Positions 14,190 through 22,320 of a DNA stretch of 31,259 nt are shown here, piece after piece. Positions within the stretch are counted from its first letter, which is position 1, and each line of letters starts with the position of its first letter. The notes under the pieces are model-generated. The model worked only from the letters and a program-made list of their open reading frames with translations. It did not search any database and was not told where the DNA came from. The position numbers were made by a program, and so were the translations under genes. Source of the DNA: an uncultured Halobacteriales archaeon (GTDB lineage: Archaea; Thermoplasmatota; E2; JACPAO01); NCBI GenBank assembly GCA_964641035.1, contig CAZXJU010000002.1, forward strand, positions 1 to 31,259. Reading direction: 5' to 3'.

Positions 14190-14591
14190 TTAGCCGGATT
14201 CCCCCGCCACCACGGAATCGGCCCATGCGACGAGGCGCCGGGCCCGTTTCGTGGCCACCTCGGCCTCGTGCGCCTCGTACTCCCGCGCCTCGTACTCGAT
14301 GAGGTTCTTGTCGCGGATCAAACGCACGAACTGCTCCGCGCGGTCGTCCGCGTCGTCGAGCCCAGTTCGCCGCACGAGCTGGGAAGAGCGCTCGTGGTCG
14401 GCGTCGCGCGACCGTTCCCCCAGCATCCACGTCGTCACGGCGTCGACGGCCGAGATCCCGGCGTGGACCGCGCCAAGGCCCGCGGCGTTCCAGTCACCGC
14501 CTGAAAGCGAGGCCTCGGCGGCACGCAGGAACTCCGTCGATTTCCGGAGATAGACGTGGGATTTGCGTGCAGGAAGTCGTTTGACCCTCAT
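14190..14591 (-). CDS. HEPN domain protein (toxin partner of an MNT-HEPN module)
   Basis: Helical 133 aa protein: KSTEFLRAAEASL..GDWNAAGLGAVHAGISAVDA...KNLIEY. ATGA overlap with the upstream MNT gene. Confidence 0.8.
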   Translation of the reverse strand: MRVKRLPARKSHVYLRKSTEFLRAAEASLSGGDWNAAGLGAVHAGISAVDAVTTWMLGERSRDADHERSSQLVRRTGLDDADDRAEQFVRLIRDKNLIEYEAREYEAHEAEVATKRARRLVAWADSVVAGESG

Positions 14592-15187
14592 CCGTCGGCC
14601 GCCAGCATCGCGACCCCGTCCTTCTCGATGGCTCGGACCAAGGCCAGGTCGCGCTTGCTGTCAAATTCGTCTTCCGAGTAGATAACCTCCGCCAGGGGGT
14701 TGGTGAAAGTGGCTTCGATCGCCTTGCGCAGGGAAGCCACGGCGTCCCGGACACCGGCCTTGTCGTCATCGGCCCGGACGACGATGAGCAGGTCGATGTC
14801 GCTCGACGGGGTCTCCTCGCCCCGCGCGATGGACCCGAAAAGCGTCGCCTGGACGACGCGCGGGTCGGAGCCGACGTGGTCCCGGACCAGGTCCCGCAGC
14901 CGCCGGATCCCGCCGTCTTGCGCGGCGAGCAGGGCGCTGAGCGGTTCGACAAGGAAGTGCGTCCGCTGGAGCCGCCATTCGTGCGCGCGGCCGACGGTCC
15001 TGCGGTGGACCAATCCGTGCGACTCCAGCCGGCGAAGCGTCGTCAGGGCGTCGGAAGGATGCACATCGGCCGTTCGCGCCAGTTCCCGTCCTGTGAACCC
15101 CTTCGCCGGATGTCGCAGGAGGGTGCCGATGACGCGCAACGCACTGCGTCCCCGGAGGATGTCGTCCAGCGGAGAATGGAACCTCAT
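14588..15187 (-). CDS. wHTH + minimal nucleotidyltransferase (MNT) antitoxin
   Basis: N-terminal wHTH (FTGRELARTADVHPSDALTTLRRLESHGLV) and NTase motif LFGSIARGEETPSSDIDLLIV. Start is ATG 15187 (or 15205), not 15532. Confidence 0.85.
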   Translation of the reverse strand: MRFHSPLDDILRGRSALRVIGTLLRHPAKGFTGRELARTADVHPSDALTTLRRLESHGLVHRRTVGRAHEWRLQRTHFLVEPLSALLAAQDGGIRRLRDLVRDHVGSDPRVVQATLFGSIARGEETPSSDIDLLIVVRADDDKAGVRDAVASLRKAIEATFTNPLAEVIYSEDEFDSKRDLALVRAIEKDGVAMLAADG

Positions 15188-16259: not shown

Positions 16260-16880
16260 TTGGCTTCCCTCTTCACCCTCGTCGAAGCCCTCTGGCTCTT
16301 CCTGCCGGCCTACATCGCCAACATGACGCCGCCGGTCGCCGCCAAGGTCCTCCCCAAGTGGAACGCGCCGATCGACGGCGGCCGGACCCACCGCGACGGA
16401 CGGCCCGTGCTCGGGAAATCCAAGACGTGGCGCGGCCTCGTCACCGGCGCCGTCGCCGCCGCCCTCGTCGCCCTGGCCCAGAGCCTCGTGGTCCACACCG
16501 ACTGGGCGCTCTCCGACTTCGCGTACACCGCATTCGGAGACAACGTCGCCGCCCCGCTCGCCATCGGATTCGCGCTCGGATTCGGCGCCGTCGCCGGCGA
16601 CGCCATCAAATCCTACTTCAAACGCCGCACCGGCCGCCAAGGCGGCGCCCCCTGGATCCCCTTCGACCAGCTCGACTTCGTCGTCTTCGGCCTCGCCGCC
16701 GCCTTCCTCACCGCCACCCTCCTCTTTATGGCGGGCGCCACCAACCACTGGTTCCTCGACGGCTTCGTCCAGGGCGACGGCTGGATCCGCCTCCTCATCA
16801 TCGTCCTCGCCACCCCGCTTCTGCACCTCGCGGTCAACGTGATCGCGTACAAGCTCGGCTTCAAAGAGGTCCCGTGGTAG
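16260..16880 (+). CDS. carS: CDP-archaeol synthase (CDP-2,3-bis-O-geranylgeranyl-sn-glycerol synthase, DUF46)
   Basis: LPAYIAN..P, PIDGG...DGRP.LG.SKTWRG, GD..KSYFKRR.G...G.PW..FDQLDF; TTG start at 16260. Confidence 0.9.
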   Translation: MASLFTLVEALWLFLPAYIANMTPPVAAKVLPKWNAPIDGGRTHRDGRPVLGKSKTWRGLVTGAVAAALVALAQSLVVHTDWALSDFAYTAFGDNVAAPLAIGFALGFGAVAGDAIKSYFKRRTGRQGGAPWIPFDQLDFVVFGLAAAFLTATLLFMAGATNHWFLDGFVQGDGWIRLLIIVLATPLLHLAVNVIAYKLGFKEVPW

Positions 16881-16882
16881 CG

Positions 16883-17224
16883 ATGGGCGTCGATCTGTTG
16901 CGCGACGAACTCATCCGTTTCGAACGCCAAGGCGACGAGCAACCCACCAACCAGGAGCTGGAGGAATGGGCCGCGCAGGCACGCGCCAAAGGCAACGAAC
17001 TGCCCGAGCCGCCCAAGGCCCGCCGGCCGGAAGGCCCCTGCCGCCTCTGCCAGGAACGCCCCTCCGCCCACCGCTGCGTCGCCTGCGACCGCGACGCCTG
17101 CCGCGAAGACTACTGGGTGATGCTCGGCCTCTGCCGCGAATGCCTCACGGAAGAGGAACTGGCCGAGGCACGCCACCGGGAGAAAACCCCGCCCGAACTG
17201 GACATCAAGTGGGTCGAGGAGTGA
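16883..17224 (+). CDS. Zinc-finger protein (113 aa), probably co-transcribed with carS
   Basis: ATG 2 nt after the carS stop; CRLC-x8-CVAC-x4-C-x9-CREC; appears in the track only as the tail of 16103..17224. Confidence 0.8.
   Translation: MGVDLLRDELIRFERQGDEQPTNQELEEWAAQARAKGNELPEPPKARRPEGPCRLCQERPSAHRCVACDRDACREDYWVMLGLCRECLTEEELAEARHREKTPPELDIKWVEE
17080..17224 (+). repeat. 145-bp direct repeat, copy 1 (3' end of the zinc-finger gene)
   Basis: 138/145 identical to 19361..19505; both copies end at TGA. Confidence 0.95.
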
Positions 17225-17463: not shown

Positions 17464-18441
17464 CTACTCGGGCGCGCCTTCCCGACCATCTCGCTTGCCA
17501 TGGGGATGCATCGCGCGCCACAAGGCAGCGGGATGGCGGTCGATGCCATCGGCCACCGGGATGTCGCCGAACAGCAGGTCAGGTTCGTGGCGCCCCCGTT
17601 CGAGTTCCAGCCCATATTTGATCTCGTCGTCGCTCCTCTCCAGCATCGCCTCGACCCGGGGAAGGACGGCAGCCTGAAGGTCCCGGGCCGTAGGAACGCC
17701 TTGCGCTCGGAGCATGGGGTGCAGGTGGGTGGCCAGGTCGTCGTCCGTCACCGCCCGAGTGTGGTCCAGGTCGACGAGGTCGAGCGTGGCGTCGTCCATA
17801 TGGCAGTGAAAAAGGAACGCGGCGCGGAGCATACGATCGTCAGGATGGACGTGCCCGTCGAAAAGGCGCGCGGCGTCGAACAGGTCCCTCGGATGGCCCC
17901 GGGCCACGAGAGCCTTGAGCTTCCCGCCGTAGACCTCCTCGGCGCGGAGCGCCGGCACGTGGGCCGCGTCGAGCTCGAACACCTCCGGCAGGTCGTGTTC
18001 CAAGAATCCGTACAATGAAAGGCGCATCAGGTAATTGATGTCGGCCCGGATGCTGTCCCGGTGACCATGGACGTTCGTGTAGCGAAATCGCAGCTTCCGG
18101 TGCGCGTGCGAGCGCGGACGCGGATCCCACTCGTACCCAAGGCTGTGCGTGAGGGCGCCGAGCTCGGCTTCGACCTCGTCGCGCTCCGCGACCATGGTGT
18201 CCCTGTCGAGGCTGCCGACGTAGTTGAGGTCCATATCGACGCTGAGGCGCGGCAGGTCGTCGTAGAAGAAGTTGATGCAGGTGCCACCCTTCAGGACGAG
18301 GCGTTCCCGGAGCCAGGGGTGTTCACCAATCCCCCGGAGCACCCTCGCAAGTCGGTACGCGCGCTCGAACTCCACGACAACGAAGCCCTCGTCACGGGCA
18401 GTGCGCTGAAGCCAGTCGGCGTCGATGTGTTCGTCAGGCAG
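17464..18441 (-). CDS. AbiEii-family nucleotidyltransferase toxin (type IV TA)
   Basis: LVLKGGTCINFFY..LPRLSVDMDL, K..AL..R..PRDLFD. The frame is open 22 codons upstream of GTG 18375, to CTG 18441, which has a GGTGA SD and overlaps the antitoxin stop. Confidence 0.88.
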   Translation of the reverse strand: MPDEHIDADWLQRTARDEGFVVVEFERAYRLARVLRGIGEHPWLRERLVLKGGTCINFFYDDLPRLSVDMDLNYVGSLDRDTMVAERDEVEAELGALTHSLGYEWDPRPRSHAHRKLRFRYTNVHGHRDSIRADINYLMRLSLYGFLEHDLPEVFELDAAHVPALRAEEVYGGKLKALVARGHPRDLFDAARLFDGHVHPDDRMLRAAFLFHCHMDDATLDLVDLDHTRAVTDDDLATHLHPMLRAQGVPTARDLQAAVLPRVEAMLERSDDEIKYGLELERGRHEPDLLFGDIPVADGIDRHPAALWRAMHPHGKRDGREGAPE

Positions 18442-19213
18442 ATCCGCTCACCGCCGGCGCGTGCGCGGGCACGATGACCTGCCAGTCGGGCTCGCTCCGC
18501 CCTCCACGGTTGGGCTTGACGCCGAAGTACGTGGTCCCCGTACCGAGCTTGGCCCTGAGTTCGCGGCGGACCGCGTCCGGCAGCCGCCAGCTGTCCGCAT
18601 TCGCGGCCACGAGGTAGCCGACCTTGCGATACAGTACCGTCTTGCCATAGATGGCGAGCAGGTCGAGCAGCCTGCCCCAATCGACGTAGGGGAAACCGCT
18701 CACGCTGGCGAGCACCTCCGGCAGGCCGCCGGCGTACTCGAGACGGTCCGCACATTGAATCAAAGCCAGCTCGCGGCACGCCACGTGGAGCGTGCCGCCG
18801 CTGCGCTTGGTGGTCGAGCGGCCCGCGTCGAGCACTTCCATGTCAATGGCGACGGGGTGGAACGCTTGGCGGTTCCACGTGAACGGGGTGAAGCGTGTGG
18901 GGGCGGCGACGTACACGGAGTGGAAGAAGGCCGACTCAGCGACGCCGTTGAGTTCGAGCGCGGTGTGGTAGGAAAAAAGGTAGGGTTCTACGACCTTGCT
19001 GGCCACGACCAGCGGGTCGGGTGAATCCGATCCGGCGCGTTCGGGGACGAGCACGTAGAGGCCTCGCCGGACGCGCTCGACGTAGCCCCGGTCCAGGAGA
19101 TACTTGACCTGCTTCCACGTGGCCTCGCGGTCCTCCCCCGTCACGGCCACAGCCTCATCCATCGTAAAGCACGCGGGTGTCTGGAAGGCCTCCACGAGGC
19201 GAGGGCGAGGCAT
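18434..19213 (-). CDS. AbiEi-family antitoxin / transcriptional regulator
   Basis: N-terminal wHTH (YLLDRGYVERVRRGLY) and LFSYHTALELNG motif; directly upstream of the AbiEii gene; ATG 19213 preferred. Confidence 0.85.
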   Translation of the reverse strand: MPRPRLVEAFQTPACFTMDEAVAVTGEDREATWKQVKYLLDRGYVERVRRGLYVLVPERAGSDSPDPLVVASKVVEPYLFSYHTALELNGVAESAFFHSVYVAAPTRFTPFTWNRQAFHPVAIDMEVLDAGRSTTKRSGGTLHVACRELALIQCADRLEYAGGLPEVLASVSGFPYVDWGRLLDLLAIYGKTVLYRKVGYLVAANADSWRLPDAVRRELRAKLGTGTTYFGVKPNRGGRSEPDWQVIVPAHAPAVSGSA

Positions 19214-19230
19214 TGTCTTCAAGCACGAGT

Positions 19231-19333
19231 AACCTCCCATGCATTTAGAGGTTTCTCTATTCAATCGATAAGAAAACTAAGGTGAGATGTTACTATCTCT
19301 TCATCAGAGAAACCTCCAACGTTTTAGGAGGTT
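19231..19333. promoter_or_regulatory. Two AACCTC-N11-GAGGTT palindromes in the abiE promoter
   Basis: Located at 19231-19253 and 19311-19333, 80 bp apart, in an AT-rich stretch. GAGGTTTCTCT (19248-19258) is also the reverse complement of AGAGAAACCTC (19306-19316). Confidence 0.6.
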
Positions 19334-19360: not shown

Positions 19361-19505
19361 CGCCTGCGACCGCGACGCGTGCCGCGAAGACTACTGGCTG
19401 ATGCTCGGCCTCTGCCGCGAATGCCTCACAGAAGAGGAACTGGCCGAGGCACGCCACCGCGAGAAGCCCCCGCCCGAACTGGACATCAAGTGGGTCGAGG
19501 ACTGA
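19361..19505 (+). pseudogene. 145-bp direct repeat, copy 2: orphan 3' fragment of the zinc-finger gene
   Basis: Encodes ACDRDACREDYWLMLGLCRECLTEEELAEARHREKPPPELDIKWVED*, without the N-terminal part of the gene. Confidence 0.9.
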
Positions 19506-19598: not shown

Positions 19599-20867
19599 AT
19601 GCCAAATCTTCGAGAGGCGCTGGTGGAACGCAACCCGTGGTGGAAAGGCGAATTCCAGGTCGCGTACCGACCACGACGAATCTACGACCGCCTCCAGAAA
19701 TTCCAGGACCACCGCCAGATCATCGCCCTCACCGGGCTACGCCGCGTCGGAAAGACCACCCTTCTCCTCAAACTCGTCCAAGACGCCCTCGACGGCGGCA
19801 CGGAACCCCAAGCGATCCTCTACTTCGCATTCGACGAATTCCCCGACGCCGACCTCCGTGAGGTACTACGCACGTACGCCGACCTGTTCGACCGCGACCT
19901 CCGAAACGACCACCACCTCATCCTCCTCGACGAAATCCAGAAAGTCGAAGGCTGGCAAGACCAACTGAAGGCGCTCTACGACACGTACGACCACCTGAAG
20001 TTCATCGTCTCCGGCTCCGAGTCCCTCTTCATCCGACAGGGAGCGCGCGCCACCCTGGCCGGCCGCCTTTTCGAATTCCAAGTCGACCCGCTTACGTTCG
20101 CCGAGTACCTCGAATTCCGAAACATCCCGCACCAGCCGCGCAAGCTGCACGAGGCGGAGATCCGGCGCGCCTTCGAGGCGTACGTACCCACCCAAGGATT
20201 CCCGGAACTCGCCGAGACGCGCGACAAGGACGTCATCCGCAAGTACGTCCGCGAAAGCATCGTCGAGAAGCTCGTCTACCGGGACCTTCCGACGCTCCTT
20301 TCCCTCCGGCAACCCGGCGTCCTCGAATCGATCCTCAACATCCTCCTGGACGACCCAGGCCAGATCCTATACGCATCCGACCTCGCCGGCGAGCTCGGTG
20401 TCTCCCGCCAGACCGTCGCCGCGTACCTCTCGTATTTGGAGCAAGCGTTCCTCATCCGGAAACTGTACAACTACTCCACCGGCCCACGCAAGGTCGAACG
20501 CAAGCTCCGCAAGTACTACGCCACCGTCGCCTCCGTCGACCTCCTCTTCCGAGAGGACCCCGCCTCGCGGGGCCGCGCCCTCGAATGGGTCATCGTCAAC
20601 CAATTGCGCGCCGAATACTTCTGGCGCGACGCGCAAAAGAACGAGGTCGACATCGTCGTCGCCGGCGACCCACCGCTCCCAATCGAGGTCAAGTCCGGAC
20701 GCGTCCGGACGCGCGGCATCGAAGCCTTCCTCCGCACGTTCGACGCGCCCCGCGGCGTCGTCGTCACACGGGACGCGGAAGCCCACCATCAGAAAGACGG
20801 ACGCACCATCGAAACGATCCCCGCGTACAAGTACCTCCTTCGCCCACCGACAGACGACGAACGCTGA
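19599..20867 (+). CDS. ATP-binding protein, AAA_14 + DUF4143 type (COG1373-like)
   Basis: GLRRVGKTT, ILLDEIQ, VSGSES, GFPE; C-terminal NEVDIV..PIEVKSG. Confidence 0.9.
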   Translation: MPNLREALVERNPWWKGEFQVAYRPRRIYDRLQKFQDHRQIIALTGLRRVGKTTLLLKLVQDALDGGTEPQAILYFAFDEFPDADLREVLRTYADLFDRDLRNDHHLILLDEIQKVEGWQDQLKALYDTYDHLKFIVSGSESLFIRQGARATLAGRLFEFQVDPLTFAEYLEFRNIPHQPRKLHEAEIRRAFEAYVPTQGFPELAETRDKDVIRKYVRESIVEKLVYRDLPTLLSLRQPGVLESILNILLDDPGQILYASDLAGELGVSRQTVAAYLSYLEQAFLIRKLYNYSTGPRKVERKLRKYYATVASVDLLFREDPASRGRALEWVIVNQLRAEYFWRDAQKNEVDIVVAGDPPLPIEVKSGRVRTRGIEAFLRTFDAPRGVVVTRDAEAHHQKDGRTIETIPAYKYLLRPPTDDER

Positions 20868-20930
20868 TCACGCCCACGGGTTCCACGGGAACCACGACGG
20901 CACGTACGCCGCCAAGAAGTCGAAGGCGCC
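20868..20930 (-). repeat. 63-bp perfect direct repeat: orphan last 21 codons of the membrane gene 22114..22320
   Basis: Identical to 22114..22176 (GAFDFLAAYVPSWFPWNPWA*); its stop abuts the ATPase stop (TGA|TCA). Confidence 0.95.
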
Positions 20931-21076
20931 GCCCTTCGACCTGACGGCAACGACGGCGGGGCGGCCTCTAGGGTCAAACCATGTCCGGGCCGAATCCCGT
21001 GCACCGCAGGTCGAATCCGGGTTCGACCCGCGCCTGGCGGGAACGTTCATATAGGAACAAACGCCATTGTTTGCTC

Positions 21077-21457
21077 ATGGGCAATGCGTCGGCCATCCCG
21101 GACCTCAACGACAGGTACGAGTTGAACGTCGCCGTCCAGCTTCTCAACGGACCCGACCTCGACCTGGAAATCCTCGAACAACTGGTCGGGCGGCCGCGCC
21201 GGTGGAGCGAACTCCGGGACGCGCTCGGGGTGGACGCCGACATGCAATTGAACCGCAGCTTGCGGCGACTCCTCGACTTCGCGGCCATCGACAAGGTCAC
21301 CGACCATGCGAAGAAACCAGCCGTAAGCACGTACCGGCTTACACCGATCGGCGTCCACGTGTTCTACACCTTAGCCGCGGTCCGCACACCGCTGCGCGAT
21401 TACACGGAAATCGCCCGCGCCCTCAAGGAAACCGGCGGCGTCCGGACGACCGCCTGA
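21077..21457 (+). CDS. Winged-helix (HxlR/ArsR-like) regulator
   Basis: LEILEQLVGRPRRWSEL..ALG....LNRSLRRL...YRLTPIG; ATG 21077. Confidence 0.7.
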   Translation: MGNASAIPDLNDRYELNVAVQLLNGPDLDLEILEQLVGRPRRWSELRDALGVDADMQLNRSLRRLLDFAAIDKVTDHAKKPAVSTYRLTPIGVHVFYTLAAVRTPLRDYTEIARALKETGGVRTTA

Positions 21458-21471
21458 GGACGTTGGACGCG

Positions 21472-21954
21472 ATGCCACCAATCCCTGGGCTCCCGCCCGG
21501 CGCAATCGAACGGGTCCGGCCGCACCTCCAGAAAACAGTCGGGTTCATTCTTGCCGCCAGCGGCGATTGTCTGGACATCCAGGCACGCGAAGTCGATACC
21601 ATCAAGACGCGCCGGTTCCAGTCGGTGGGCCCGCACCAGTTGGAATCGCTGGAATTGCCGGAAAGTTGGATTCTTGCCGCCGTGATGTGCCCAGGCGACG
21701 ACACACGCGCCATCGCCCGGTTCACCGAGGGACTCGACGCGGGCGACCGCCAACGCATCCGGTTCTACTGGTACCCGGAGACACGCCCCGCCGACGCTCT
21801 GAAGCCGTGGCTCGCCGCAGGCCTTGGTCCAATCCAAGAAGACGACATCGACGGCTGGCAACGGTTTCACAAGCTCTTCGGCGCGCACCATTCCATCCAG
21901 GTGTTCATTGACCAAGCAGACCGTGGCCCCGCCACCGCGAAACGCGTGCGATGA
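21472..21954 (+). CDS. Hypothetical protein (160 aa), operonic with the wHTH gene
   Basis: ATG 14 nt after the wHTH stop; protein-like composition (MPPIPGLPPGAIERVRPHLQKTVGFILAASG...). No family recognised. Confidence 0.6.
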   Translation: MPPIPGLPPGAIERVRPHLQKTVGFILAASGDCLDIQAREVDTIKTRRFQSVGPHQLESLELPESWILAAVMCPGDDTRAIARFTEGLDAGDRQRIRFYWYPETRPADALKPWLAAGLGPIQEDDIDGWQRFHKLFGAHHSIQVFIDQADRGPATAKRVR

Positions 21955-21973
21955 GCGGAACTTCGGATCCTGG

Positions 21974-22019
21974 GGGAACTGGACGTGCCAAGATATCGAA
22001 CCCTGGCACTCCGGTTCCC
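21974..22019. terminator. Strong hairpin between convergent genes
   Basis: GGGAAC-TGGA-c-GTGCCA / 13-nt loop / TGGCAC-TCCG-GTTCCC: 16 bp with one bulge and one G-U pair. Confidence 0.45.
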
Positions 22020-22113
22020 ACACGTTCTGCGGGCGACGGTCAGGTAACGAAGCCCCGAAGGCACGGCGTGGCCGGGCCTCACTATCGCACCCGAAAGGAC
22101 CCGGGGCCCCGAT

Positions 22114-22320
22114 TCACGCCCACGGGTTCCACGGGAACCACGACGGCACGTACGCCGCCAAGAAGTCGAAGGCGCCCAACTGCCACGCCACGAAGACCAC
22201 GAACGCGACCGCGCCCGCCACGATCGCGAACTTGATCAGGCTCTTGATGATGAAGAAGACCACGACGATCGCGATGATCACGATGACCGTGAAGGGGACC
22301 GCCGTCTCGAGCGCAACCAT
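22114..22320 (-). CDS. Small membrane protein (68 aa); target gene of cassette B
   Basis: Two hydrophobic helices, a Trp/Pro-rich tail and a GGAG SD upstream; its last 63 bp are duplicated at 20868. Confidence 0.8.
   Translation of the reverse strand: MVALETAVPFTVIVIIAIVVVFFIIKSLIKFAIVAGAVAFVVFVAWQLGAFDFLAAYVPSWFPWNPWA

Follow-up and report, generated by a model that had tools for sequence, protein, structure and literature searches.

Type II toxin-antitoxin (TA) operons, such as VapBC, HigBA, and the AbiEi/AbiEii pair that adjoins the locus described here, consist of two short genes with the DNA-binding protein encoded first and with small gaps or 4-nt overlaps between the genes. They carry a palindromic operator at their own promoter, their products form a tight heterocomplex, and they occur as many divergent, insulated paralogues that are patchily distributed, often decayed, and found in TA hotspots. 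The same features, with the tight heterocomplex as a prediction, were found for a gene pair called W-T here, which is located in a stretch of 31,259 nucleotides from an uncultured Thermoplasmatota archaeon from soil (contig CAZXJU010000002.1 of assembly GCA_964641035.1). This whole stretch is referred to as the window. W-T differs from the described operons in two respects: T belongs to no known toxin family, having a flavodoxin/receiver/TIR-like fold, and in the model of the complex the wing of W binds the α4-β5-α5 face of T, so that the conserved pocket of T stays open. The genes and the promoter elements of the module are as follows.

21046-21057, plus strand: TATA-like box TTCATATAGGAA, about 26 nt before the W ATG
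21058-21073, plus strand: candidate palindromic operator CAAAC-N6-GTTTG, between the TATA box and the W ATG
21077-21457, plus strand: W, HxlR/DUF24-type winged-helix protein, 126 aa, above the Pfam HxlR cut-off
21472-21954, plus strand: T, 160-aa protein of no described family, starting 14 nt after W

Regulators of the HxlR/DUF24 family are known for Cys-based sensing, and in YodB, HypR, and HxlR the conserved sensing Cys is located in the N-terminal helix. Those with one adjacent target gene (HxlR, YodB, and HypR of Bacillus subtilis) also resemble the module. W passes the Pfam cut-off for this family, its model best matches the structures 7bzd, 5hs7, and 4a5m, and it is likewise a small, dimer-type winged helix-turn-helix (wHTH) protein with a palindromic operator at a single promoter. 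In contrast to these regulators, W has no sensing Cys; a conserved Cys pair is located in the separate, co-translated T, which is predicted to bind W. Moreover, W-T is multi-copy and patchy, unlike a fixed stress regulon.

T shares a five-stranded parallel sheet with flanking helices with both the CheY-like receivers and the TIR domains, and its predicted partner-binding face, α4-β5-α5, is the usual output face of receivers. Unlike receivers, T has Cys residues where, judging from the topology, the acidic pocket would be located, and it has no match to Pfam Response_reg. It differs from TIR domains in having no Pfam TIR match, and the conserved catalytic Glu of NADase TIRs is not apparent in T.

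For the locus as a whole, the nearest described cases are the Rhs loci and the effector-immunity arrays of type VI secretion (T6SS) in Vibrio cholerae, for which gene-end displacement by homology-facilitated illegitimate recombination was proposed (PMC5361080). In these arrays, as in the window, cargo units accumulate at one site and are separated by orphaned 3' ends of a border gene, an intact copy of the border gene is kept, and no recombinase gene is present. The window locus differs in using both borders of a convergent gene pair (ZnF on the left and TM on the right), in having TA-type modules as cargo, and in its archaeal host; the scars are the sole record from which the mechanism is here inferred.

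W-T is a real and conserved module, undescribed in the family libraries searched. We consider it somewhat short of an even chance that this module is a new one of the type II TA-like kind. This reading is preferred because W and T are paired and predicted to form a complex, because their operators are private and no regulon is detectable, and because the paralogues are divergent and insulated, swing in copy number between close relatives, and decay frequently. It is also preferred because the module shows insertion/deletion polymorphism and lies in a site that collects TA genes.

Pairing and Distribution of W and T

A word-indexed search for homologues of T returned five close ones (57-96% identity), and an exhaustive HMMER search of 1.84 billion cluster representatives returned 83 (best E 4e-36). 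No match for T was found in Pfam, NCBIfam, or PADLOC. In the literature on HxlR with antitoxin and on TA with Thermoplasmatota, nothing was found on the W-T family.

The window is contig C2 of a metagenome-assembled genome (MAG) of 2.1 Mb in 305 contigs, with a completeness of 86% and a G+C content of 67%. This genome has six T paralogues, 24-39% identical, and each of them has a W paralogue upstream on the same strand (6/6). W was also found before T, on the same strand, in 23/23 loci checked from 13 relatives and three metagenome contigs, and it is located beside T for 15 of the 16 T genes called in long-flank loci. The conserved pairing with the wHTH gene, which the initial annotation had named as a check on the module, is thus near-obligate. 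A 4-nt overlap of the start and stop codons of W and T is common in the family, and divergently arranged W/T pairs were found in three loci (L138, L163, and L166). In the metagenome contigs L138 and L139, with the T homologue P0018, T is divergent from a 272-aa protein with a weak HxlR match, and a pair of HVO_2833_C and DUF6036 genes and a second HxlR-like gene are located nearby.

Within one order, the T profile was found in 15 of 61 relatives, with 1 to 23 matches per genome in these and 0 in the others. Across the phylum, the T family is present in 18 of 401 Thermoplasmatota genomes, belonging to 12 of 162 genera. The largest expansion, with 23 T-profile matches, was found in a genome of 3.4 Mb (G002), which has tandem and head-to-head copies (C5:39367-40463, C134). 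About one-tenth of the genomic T matches are frameshifted or truncated, some of them beside an intact W (L164, L170).

An insertion/deletion polymorphism of the module was found in the genome G016, where W-T is located between two genes (G016:C3) that are adjacent in five congeners. In these congeners, the same site holds 485 to ~1240 nt of unrelated sequence with no W or T homologue. Judging from this site, W-T moves as a unit outside the window locus as well. The same W-T copy was found in two metagenome contigs of one study (L001 and L002); in L001, an RHH_12 and PIN_2 pair is inserted upstream and a Transposase_20 gene is located just after T, and neither is present in L002. These surroundings are another TA and insertion sequence (IS) hotspot around the module.

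Supposed fusions of T to other domains were considered as clues to its function and rejected. The proteins P0088, P0089, P0060, P0074, and P0063 have no Pfam domains, and P0041 and P0090 are SpaA-repeat surface proteins with spurious T matches. The supposed fusions also include P0042, a protein of 5584 aa in which 11 stretches match the T search.

Promoters and Operators of the W Genes

By the placement rule for archaeal promoters, the position of the TATA-like box ~26 nt before the W start would imply a leaderless or short-leader transcript. This box is conserved in the metagenome contigs L006 and L001, and in both of them the arms of the operator palindrome are kept and extended to 9 bp, while its center varies.

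Palindromes in this position are enriched in front of W genes. Inverted repeats with perfect arms of at least 7 bp within 32 nt upstream of the start were found in 12/27 W loci and in 24/1022 control genes, the controls being genes with an upstream gap. With arms of at least 6 bp, the same scan gave 18/27 W loci and 80/1022 controls. The operator sequences differ between the W paralogues, and no operator of the W-T genome has a second occurrence in the 2.1-Mb assembly, so W appears to act on no operon but its own. The position of the operator at the promoter of W itself suggests that this regulation is autoregulation.

Structures of W and T and Their Predicted Complex

W matches the Pfam HxlR family (PF01638) over residues 32-103 with 22.2 bits, above the cut-off of 20.8 (E 1.3e-4), and weak HxlR matches were also found in relatives. 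The AlphaFold2 model of W, with a predicted local distance difference test (pLDDT) value of 84, is a MarR-type winged helix. Its top Foldseek matches in the PDB are 7bzd (HxlR), 2fsw, 1z7u, 7kd3, HypR, and YodB, with TM-scores of 0.56-0.72. The alignment of 28 W sequences has no conserved Cys column. The winged helix of W is followed by a long helix at the C-terminus and by an Ala-rich tail modeled with low confidence; antitoxins usually have this layout, with the DNA-binding domain first and a C-terminal helix and tail of low confidence after it. Most W proteins (alignment A5) end, after the low-confidence helix, in a short Ala-rich motif (RG..AA.SA and similar). That this end might mark W for degradation, as would suit a labile antitoxin, is pure conjecture.

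T was modeled with pLDDT 93 and a predicted TM-score (pTM) of 0.88 as a five-stranded parallel α/β/α sandwich. Near-invariant residues in the family are C33, C73-x-G75-D76, R47, W66, R95, W113, G137, and D147. C33 is located in the first turn of the helix after β1, and C73-x-G75-D76 follows directly after β3. C33, C73, and D76 sit at the C-terminal edge of the sheet, outside the predicted interface with W. Judging from the order of secondary-structure elements rather than from a residue-level alignment, the Cys pair would occupy the acidic-pocket positions of receivers (start of α1 and end of β3).

The fold of T gave several groups of matches. Foldseek found flavodoxin and SIS domains with TM-scores <0.5, and fold searches of the AlphaFold Database clusters and Swiss-Prot found only generic flavodoxin, SIS, and NrdI proteins with TM-scores up to about 0.5. 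In a shape search of the ESM Atlas, T matched DUF7509, receivers, and TIR domains with TM-scores up to 0.63; the ESM Atlas search by T features gave no usable match. By VIA-align, a TIR-STING protein has a Z of 9.1, tied with many CheY-type receivers at Z 8-9. The sequence model of DUF7509 (PF24349), the family with the best shape match in the ESM Atlas (TM-score 0.63), has no match in 41 genomes holding dozens of T genes; the Haloferax control was found. No match to Pfam Response_reg (PF00072) was found for any of the 63 T family members tried (0/63), and the residue after β3 is the near-invariant Cys73, not the phospho-acceptor Asp. T has no Pfam match to TIR (PF01582/PF13676), and the PDB sequence profile search with T gave only a chance match (E 0.16).

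The model of the W-T complex has a score of 0.87, and the best of three controls has 0.06. The score mark was reached by 58/80 solved complexes and by 2/110 mismatched pairs, these counts being rough and obtained with our own alignments. Between runs, at least 63% of contacts are shared, and the pLDDT of the partners is at least 86. The model supports the binding of W and T to each other. The predicted interface is formed on the W side by the N-terminal arm (residues 4-16) and the wing region (66-101), and on the T side by the N-terminus (6-16) and the α4-β5-α5 face (106-149). The tightest pairs connect residues 73-77 of W with residues 119-124 of T, contacts that suggest strand pairing.

Layout of the Window Locus

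In the window, W-T belongs to a hotspot of 4.9 kb between the genes ZnF and TM. This interval holds the AbiE pair, an orphan ZnF end (145 nt), an ATPase gene, an orphan TM end (63 nt), and W-T. The further features of the locus are as follows.

16260-16880, plus strand: CDP-archaeol synthase (CarS-like) gene, conserved left anchor of the locus (Pfam PF01864, E 1.8e-33)
16883-17224, plus strand: ZnF, small Zn-finger-like gene, left border of the hotspot (gene call)
17080-17224, plus strand: repeat A copy 1, the last 145 nt of ZnF (repeat search)
17464-18375, minus strand: AbiEii toxin gene, cargo of cassette A (Pfam PF08843, E 4e-29)
18434-19264, minus strand: AbiEi antitoxin gene, cargo of cassette A (Pfam PF13338, E 5e-7)
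19361-19505, plus strand: repeat A copy 2, ZnF-allele 3' end, orphaned (138/145 identity with copy 1)
19599-20867, plus strand: AAA_14 + DUF4143 ATPase gene, COG1373 type (Pfam E 4e-32 and 2e-19)
20868-20930, minus strand: repeat B left copy, orphan last 20 codons and stop codon of TM (63/63 identical to 22114-22176)
20931-21045, no strand: spacer unique to the window lineage (~100 bp of it absent from L006, an 81% relative)
21955-22113, no strand: T-TM spacer, kept with the module in L162, L161, and L006
22114-22320, minus strand: TM, gene for a 68-aa two-helix membrane protein, right border of the hotspot (gene call)
22114-22176, minus strand: repeat B right copy, the TM 3' end (exact 63-bp match to the left copy)

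The borders of the hotspot are also present in relatives. ZnF orthologues were found in 28/41 relatives, and the CarS-ZnF gene order was found in G001, G002, G003, and G005. G001 is from a different genus in the same family; its ZnF and TM orthologues are convergent and abut, with overlapping stop codons (TTAA) and nothing between them (G001:C167, L046 1567-2063). Because the stop codons are shared and there is no intergenic space, an insertion at such a junction must supply a replacement gene end. This need may be why every cargo unit in the window carries an orphan gene end. The place after CarS-ZnF is occupied by a MazE-type antitoxin and a PIN toxin in G003, and by a DUF5678 protein in G002.

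Several further observations concern the window. The spacer between the left copy of repeat B and the W promoter has a perfect inverted repeat with 7-bp arms, GGTCGAA-TCCGGG-TTCGACC, at 21010-21029, and the ~100-bp stretch that holds it is absent from L006. The idea that the spacer 20931-21076 (GGTCGAATCC...TTCGACC) is a tRNA fragment was rejected: no tRNA was detected in the window by ARAGORN, the only Rfam match was a chance one to a miRNA, and the fold z-score is -1.15. A second AAA_14 + DUF4143 (COG1373-type) ATPase gene, a paralogue of the one at 19599-20867, is located at 1243-2595 on the plus strand. The ATPase at 19599-20867 matches the PADLOC candidate PDC-S01 (PDLC04787, E 3.7e-66). 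A further TA-type pair is located on the minus strand, with a gene for a HEPN protein at 14190-14591 and a gene for a fusion of a MarR-like wHTH to a minimal nucleotidyltransferase at 14588-15187, overlapping by 4 nt.

Flanking Repeats and Age of the Insertion

The initial annotation had described W-T as the cargo of a recent insertion. Most of this description was confirmed: the flanks at 20868-20930 and 22114-22176 are an exact match over 63 bp, the cargo is a wHTH gene followed after a 14-nt gap by the gene for a 160-aa protein of no recognized family, and the neighbors in the hotspot are a TA pair (AbiEii/AbiEi) and a COG1373-type ATPase. The recent date, in contrast, is not supported. T, the spacer, and the TM 3' end were also found in the metagenome contigs L162, L161, and L006, at 94%, 84%, and 81% nucleotide identity. 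L006, which comes from another study, has in addition a decayed left copy of the TM end, located directly after a subtilase gene and 36/45 identical to its own right copy; 0/2000 shuffles reach this alignment score. Thus, the association of W-T with TM and the duplication of the TM end predate ~19% nucleotide divergence. A recent event at the left junction, by recombination or gene conversion, accounts better for the 63/63 identity in the window than a recent arrival of W-T would. For instance, the segment ZnF'-ATPase-TM' could have come in from another strain by an exchange that used the old left copy as its anchor.

The identity of the two copies of repeat B breaks off abruptly on the inner side and ends at the TM stop codon on the outer side, and no nucleotide separates the left copy from the stop codon of the ATPase gene (TGA followed by TCA). 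Around the other five W-T copies of the same genome, no closely bracketing direct repeats of at least 13 bp were found; repeat B is therefore a trait of the window locus and not of the module family. The copies of repeat A bracket the AbiE pair as those of repeat B bracket W-T. They have 7 differences in 145 nt, 5 of them at codon position 3, and no indels, a pattern that fits two ZnF alleles evolved as coding sequence in different strains. No recombinase was found among the called genes of the window, and the two matches to PF00589 (tyrosine recombinase) in the assembly are on the contigs C13 and C277, outside the window. In our reading, strains recombined here through anchoring homology (gene-end displacement), and the orphan gene ends are the resulting scars, not attachment sites of an active element.

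Two other origins of the repeats were weighed. W-T may be a recent mobile mini-cassette, in which case a circle of 1246 bp, consisting of one 63-bp copy and W-T, would have integrated in the TM 3' end by site-specific or Campbell-type recombination and may still excise. Such an event would leave flanks with 63/63 identity that stop exactly at the end of the TM gene, its stop codon, and a 2335-nt Logan contig of the run X1 passes directly from 20867 to 22114, leaving out exactly 1246 bp. However, the depth of this contig is the same as that of the cassette contig (6.6 vs. 6.9), and it comes from a k=31 assembly at ~6x with uncovered junction stubs, in which a 63-bp repeat of this kind collapses just so; a collapsed repeat is at least as likely here as a true empty-site or excised form. 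The TM-end copy left of W-T in L006 stands beside a different neighbor, the subtilase gene, as expected if the repeat travels with the cassette, but the decay of this copy and the W-T-TM adjacency in all three metagenome contigs make the association old. The 31-kb contig has no integrase, the tyrosine recombinases of the assembly being located elsewhere, and the other five W-T copies of the genome lack such flanks. The differences between the copies of repeat A in cassette A, mostly at third codon positions (5/7), fit recombination between alleles and not in-place duplication. The mini-cassette is therefore an unlikely origin. Highly improbable is an assembly artefact, in which the contig would string together alternative strain alleles and the repeats would be assembler joints. 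The MAG is a fragmented one from soil, with its 305 contigs, and the same study contains more than one strain variant of the locus. Against this, three runs gave independent Logan contigs that cover every unit's interior with 0 mismatches, and one of them (X2 record 12) runs through the ATPase gene and ends exactly at the end of the left repeat. The same architecture of left copy, W-T, and TM is present in L006, from the other study. Finally, a collapsed k-mer joint cannot explain the inner ZnF copy, whose identity to the outer copy is only 95%. In the run X4, from a related strain of another study, Logan contigs cover the AbiE pair and the ATPase gene; no W-T contig was found there at a likeness of at least 90%, and this run was not used as evidence.

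Function of the Module

Under the TA-like reading, W-T would be an autoregulated, self-contained accessory module of two proteins. A W dimer would repress the leaderless W-T operon by binding its private palindrome between TATA box and start codon, T being made in step with W. T would bind W through its N-terminal arm and its α4-β5-α5 face, touching the wing and the N-terminal arm of W. As the effector, T would act through its Cys33/Cys73/Asp76 pocket on a cellular target once W is lost or outnumbered, and this action would stabilize the module or abort infection. Of the elements of this scheme, pairing, operators, distribution, and insertion/deletion polymorphism are in silico findings, and the binding of W and T is a prediction; beyond these, T would be the toxin, W would be labile, and the pocket would have a chemistry of its own.

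The interpretation given in the initial annotation is upheld in part, and its proposal of a candidate new TA or defence module withstood every test applied. It agrees with the near-obligate pairing, the patchy, multi-copy, and decaying family, the private operators, the predicted binding, and a site that holds AbiE in the window and MazE-PIN in a relative. It agrees less with neighborhoods that are mostly housekeeping and with a generic T fold whose Cys pocket is uncovered. The check for defence-island neighborhoods, proposed with it, gave 91 genes within three positions of 16 W-T loci. By a descriptive count, these are mostly housekeeping genes (Hsp70, GrpE, aconitase, CarS, and others), and the only recurrent conflict-type families are PIN (3/91) and Fic (2/91), so a classical defence island is unsupported. 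In PADLOC-DB 2.0, W has only a chance-level match to JetB (E 0.056) and T has none. The fold check by Foldseek, proposed as well, found no specific known family for T, only the generic flavodoxin/receiver/TIR-like fold.

These housekeeping neighborhoods weigh against the TA-like reading, together with the following points. T was found without an adjacent W in L137, L152, and L165:2075-2536. No T homologue was found in plasmids, phages, or IMG/VR contigs, a result of little weight since these collections hold few archaeal elements. No match to the fold of T stands out (best Z 9.1, Foldseek TM-score <0.65), and we know of no TA toxin family with a T-like fold; T is a candidate toxin only. In the model, W leaves the Cys pocket of T uncovered and T sits on the wing of W, a geometry that seems closer to that of a co-regulator or anti-repressor than to that of a neutralized toxin. 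Taken by itself, the open pocket in the model neither shows nor excludes neutralization by W. The last of these points is that the nearest structures to W are HxlR, YodB, HypR, and other DUF24 proteins, a family known in general for thiol sensing.

The similarity to thiol sensors leads to the main rival explanation, a serious one, which we regard as rather less likely than not: T would be a receiver-like thiol switch (or a metal or ligand switch) acting with a repressor, with Cys33 and Cys73, and Asp76 nearby, in acidic-pocket positions. Oxidation, alkylation, or metal binding at this pocket would alter the α4-β5-α5 face and hence the grip of T on the wing of the Cys-free W, turning the operon on or off. 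The protective product may be T itself, by analogy with HxlR/DUF24 regulators whose single target gene lies next to them. W, which has no conserved Cys, that of its family having been lost or never present, and T, with two near-invariant Cys at the sheet edge, would fit such a division of roles, as would the predicted interface (106-149 of T with the wing, 66-101, of W), which leaves the Cys pocket free. Receivers are among the best fold matches of T (Z 8-9), but TIR-STING scores as well as they do, and the equivalence of the pockets is inferred from the order of secondary-structure elements, not from a residue-level alignment. Moreover, no regulon was found: each operator is present only at its own promoter, so that only W-T would be regulated. 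For a stress sensor, it would be odd to have up to 23 insulated, divergent copies of one pocket chemistry in a genome and to be missing from most congeners; frequent decay and residence in TA hotspots would be unusual too. If T is an effector triggered by thiols, the TA-like and the thiol-switch explanations could each be true in part.

In a more specific and quite improbable form, W-T would be a new archaeal class of addiction or defence module. Its receiver-like effector, with a Cys-Cys-Asp pocket replacing the phospho-acceptor site, would regulate an HxlR-type repressor and in turn be regulated by it, holding its DNA-binding wing via α4-β5-α5. The trigger of toxicity or immunity would be thiol chemistry, under oxidative or electrophile stress or on a redox change induced by a virus, and the module would spread without a recombinase of its own, by gene-end-anchored recombination at convergent-gene junctions.

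Implications for Archaeal TA and Defence Repertoires

The TA and defence repertoires of Archaea are poorly known, and the soil Thermoplasmatota have no cultured models. The analysis defines as a family about 80 protein clusters that are represented in none of Pfam, NCBIfam, and PADLOC. For T and the W-T pair, it offers a confident fold, a predicted partner interface, a testable pocket (C33, C73, and D76), and a defined operator, which make toxicity, redox switching, and DNA binding directly testable. If T is a toxin, it would be a new type of effector for type II systems. If it is a thiol switch, W-T would be a case of an HxlR-type regulator with the sensing Cys moved to a separate subunit. 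The locus itself is a clean archaeal case of TA cargo piling up between a pair of convergent core genes, the scars being orphaned gene ends, and this pattern of orphan ends could guide the search for further cargo families.

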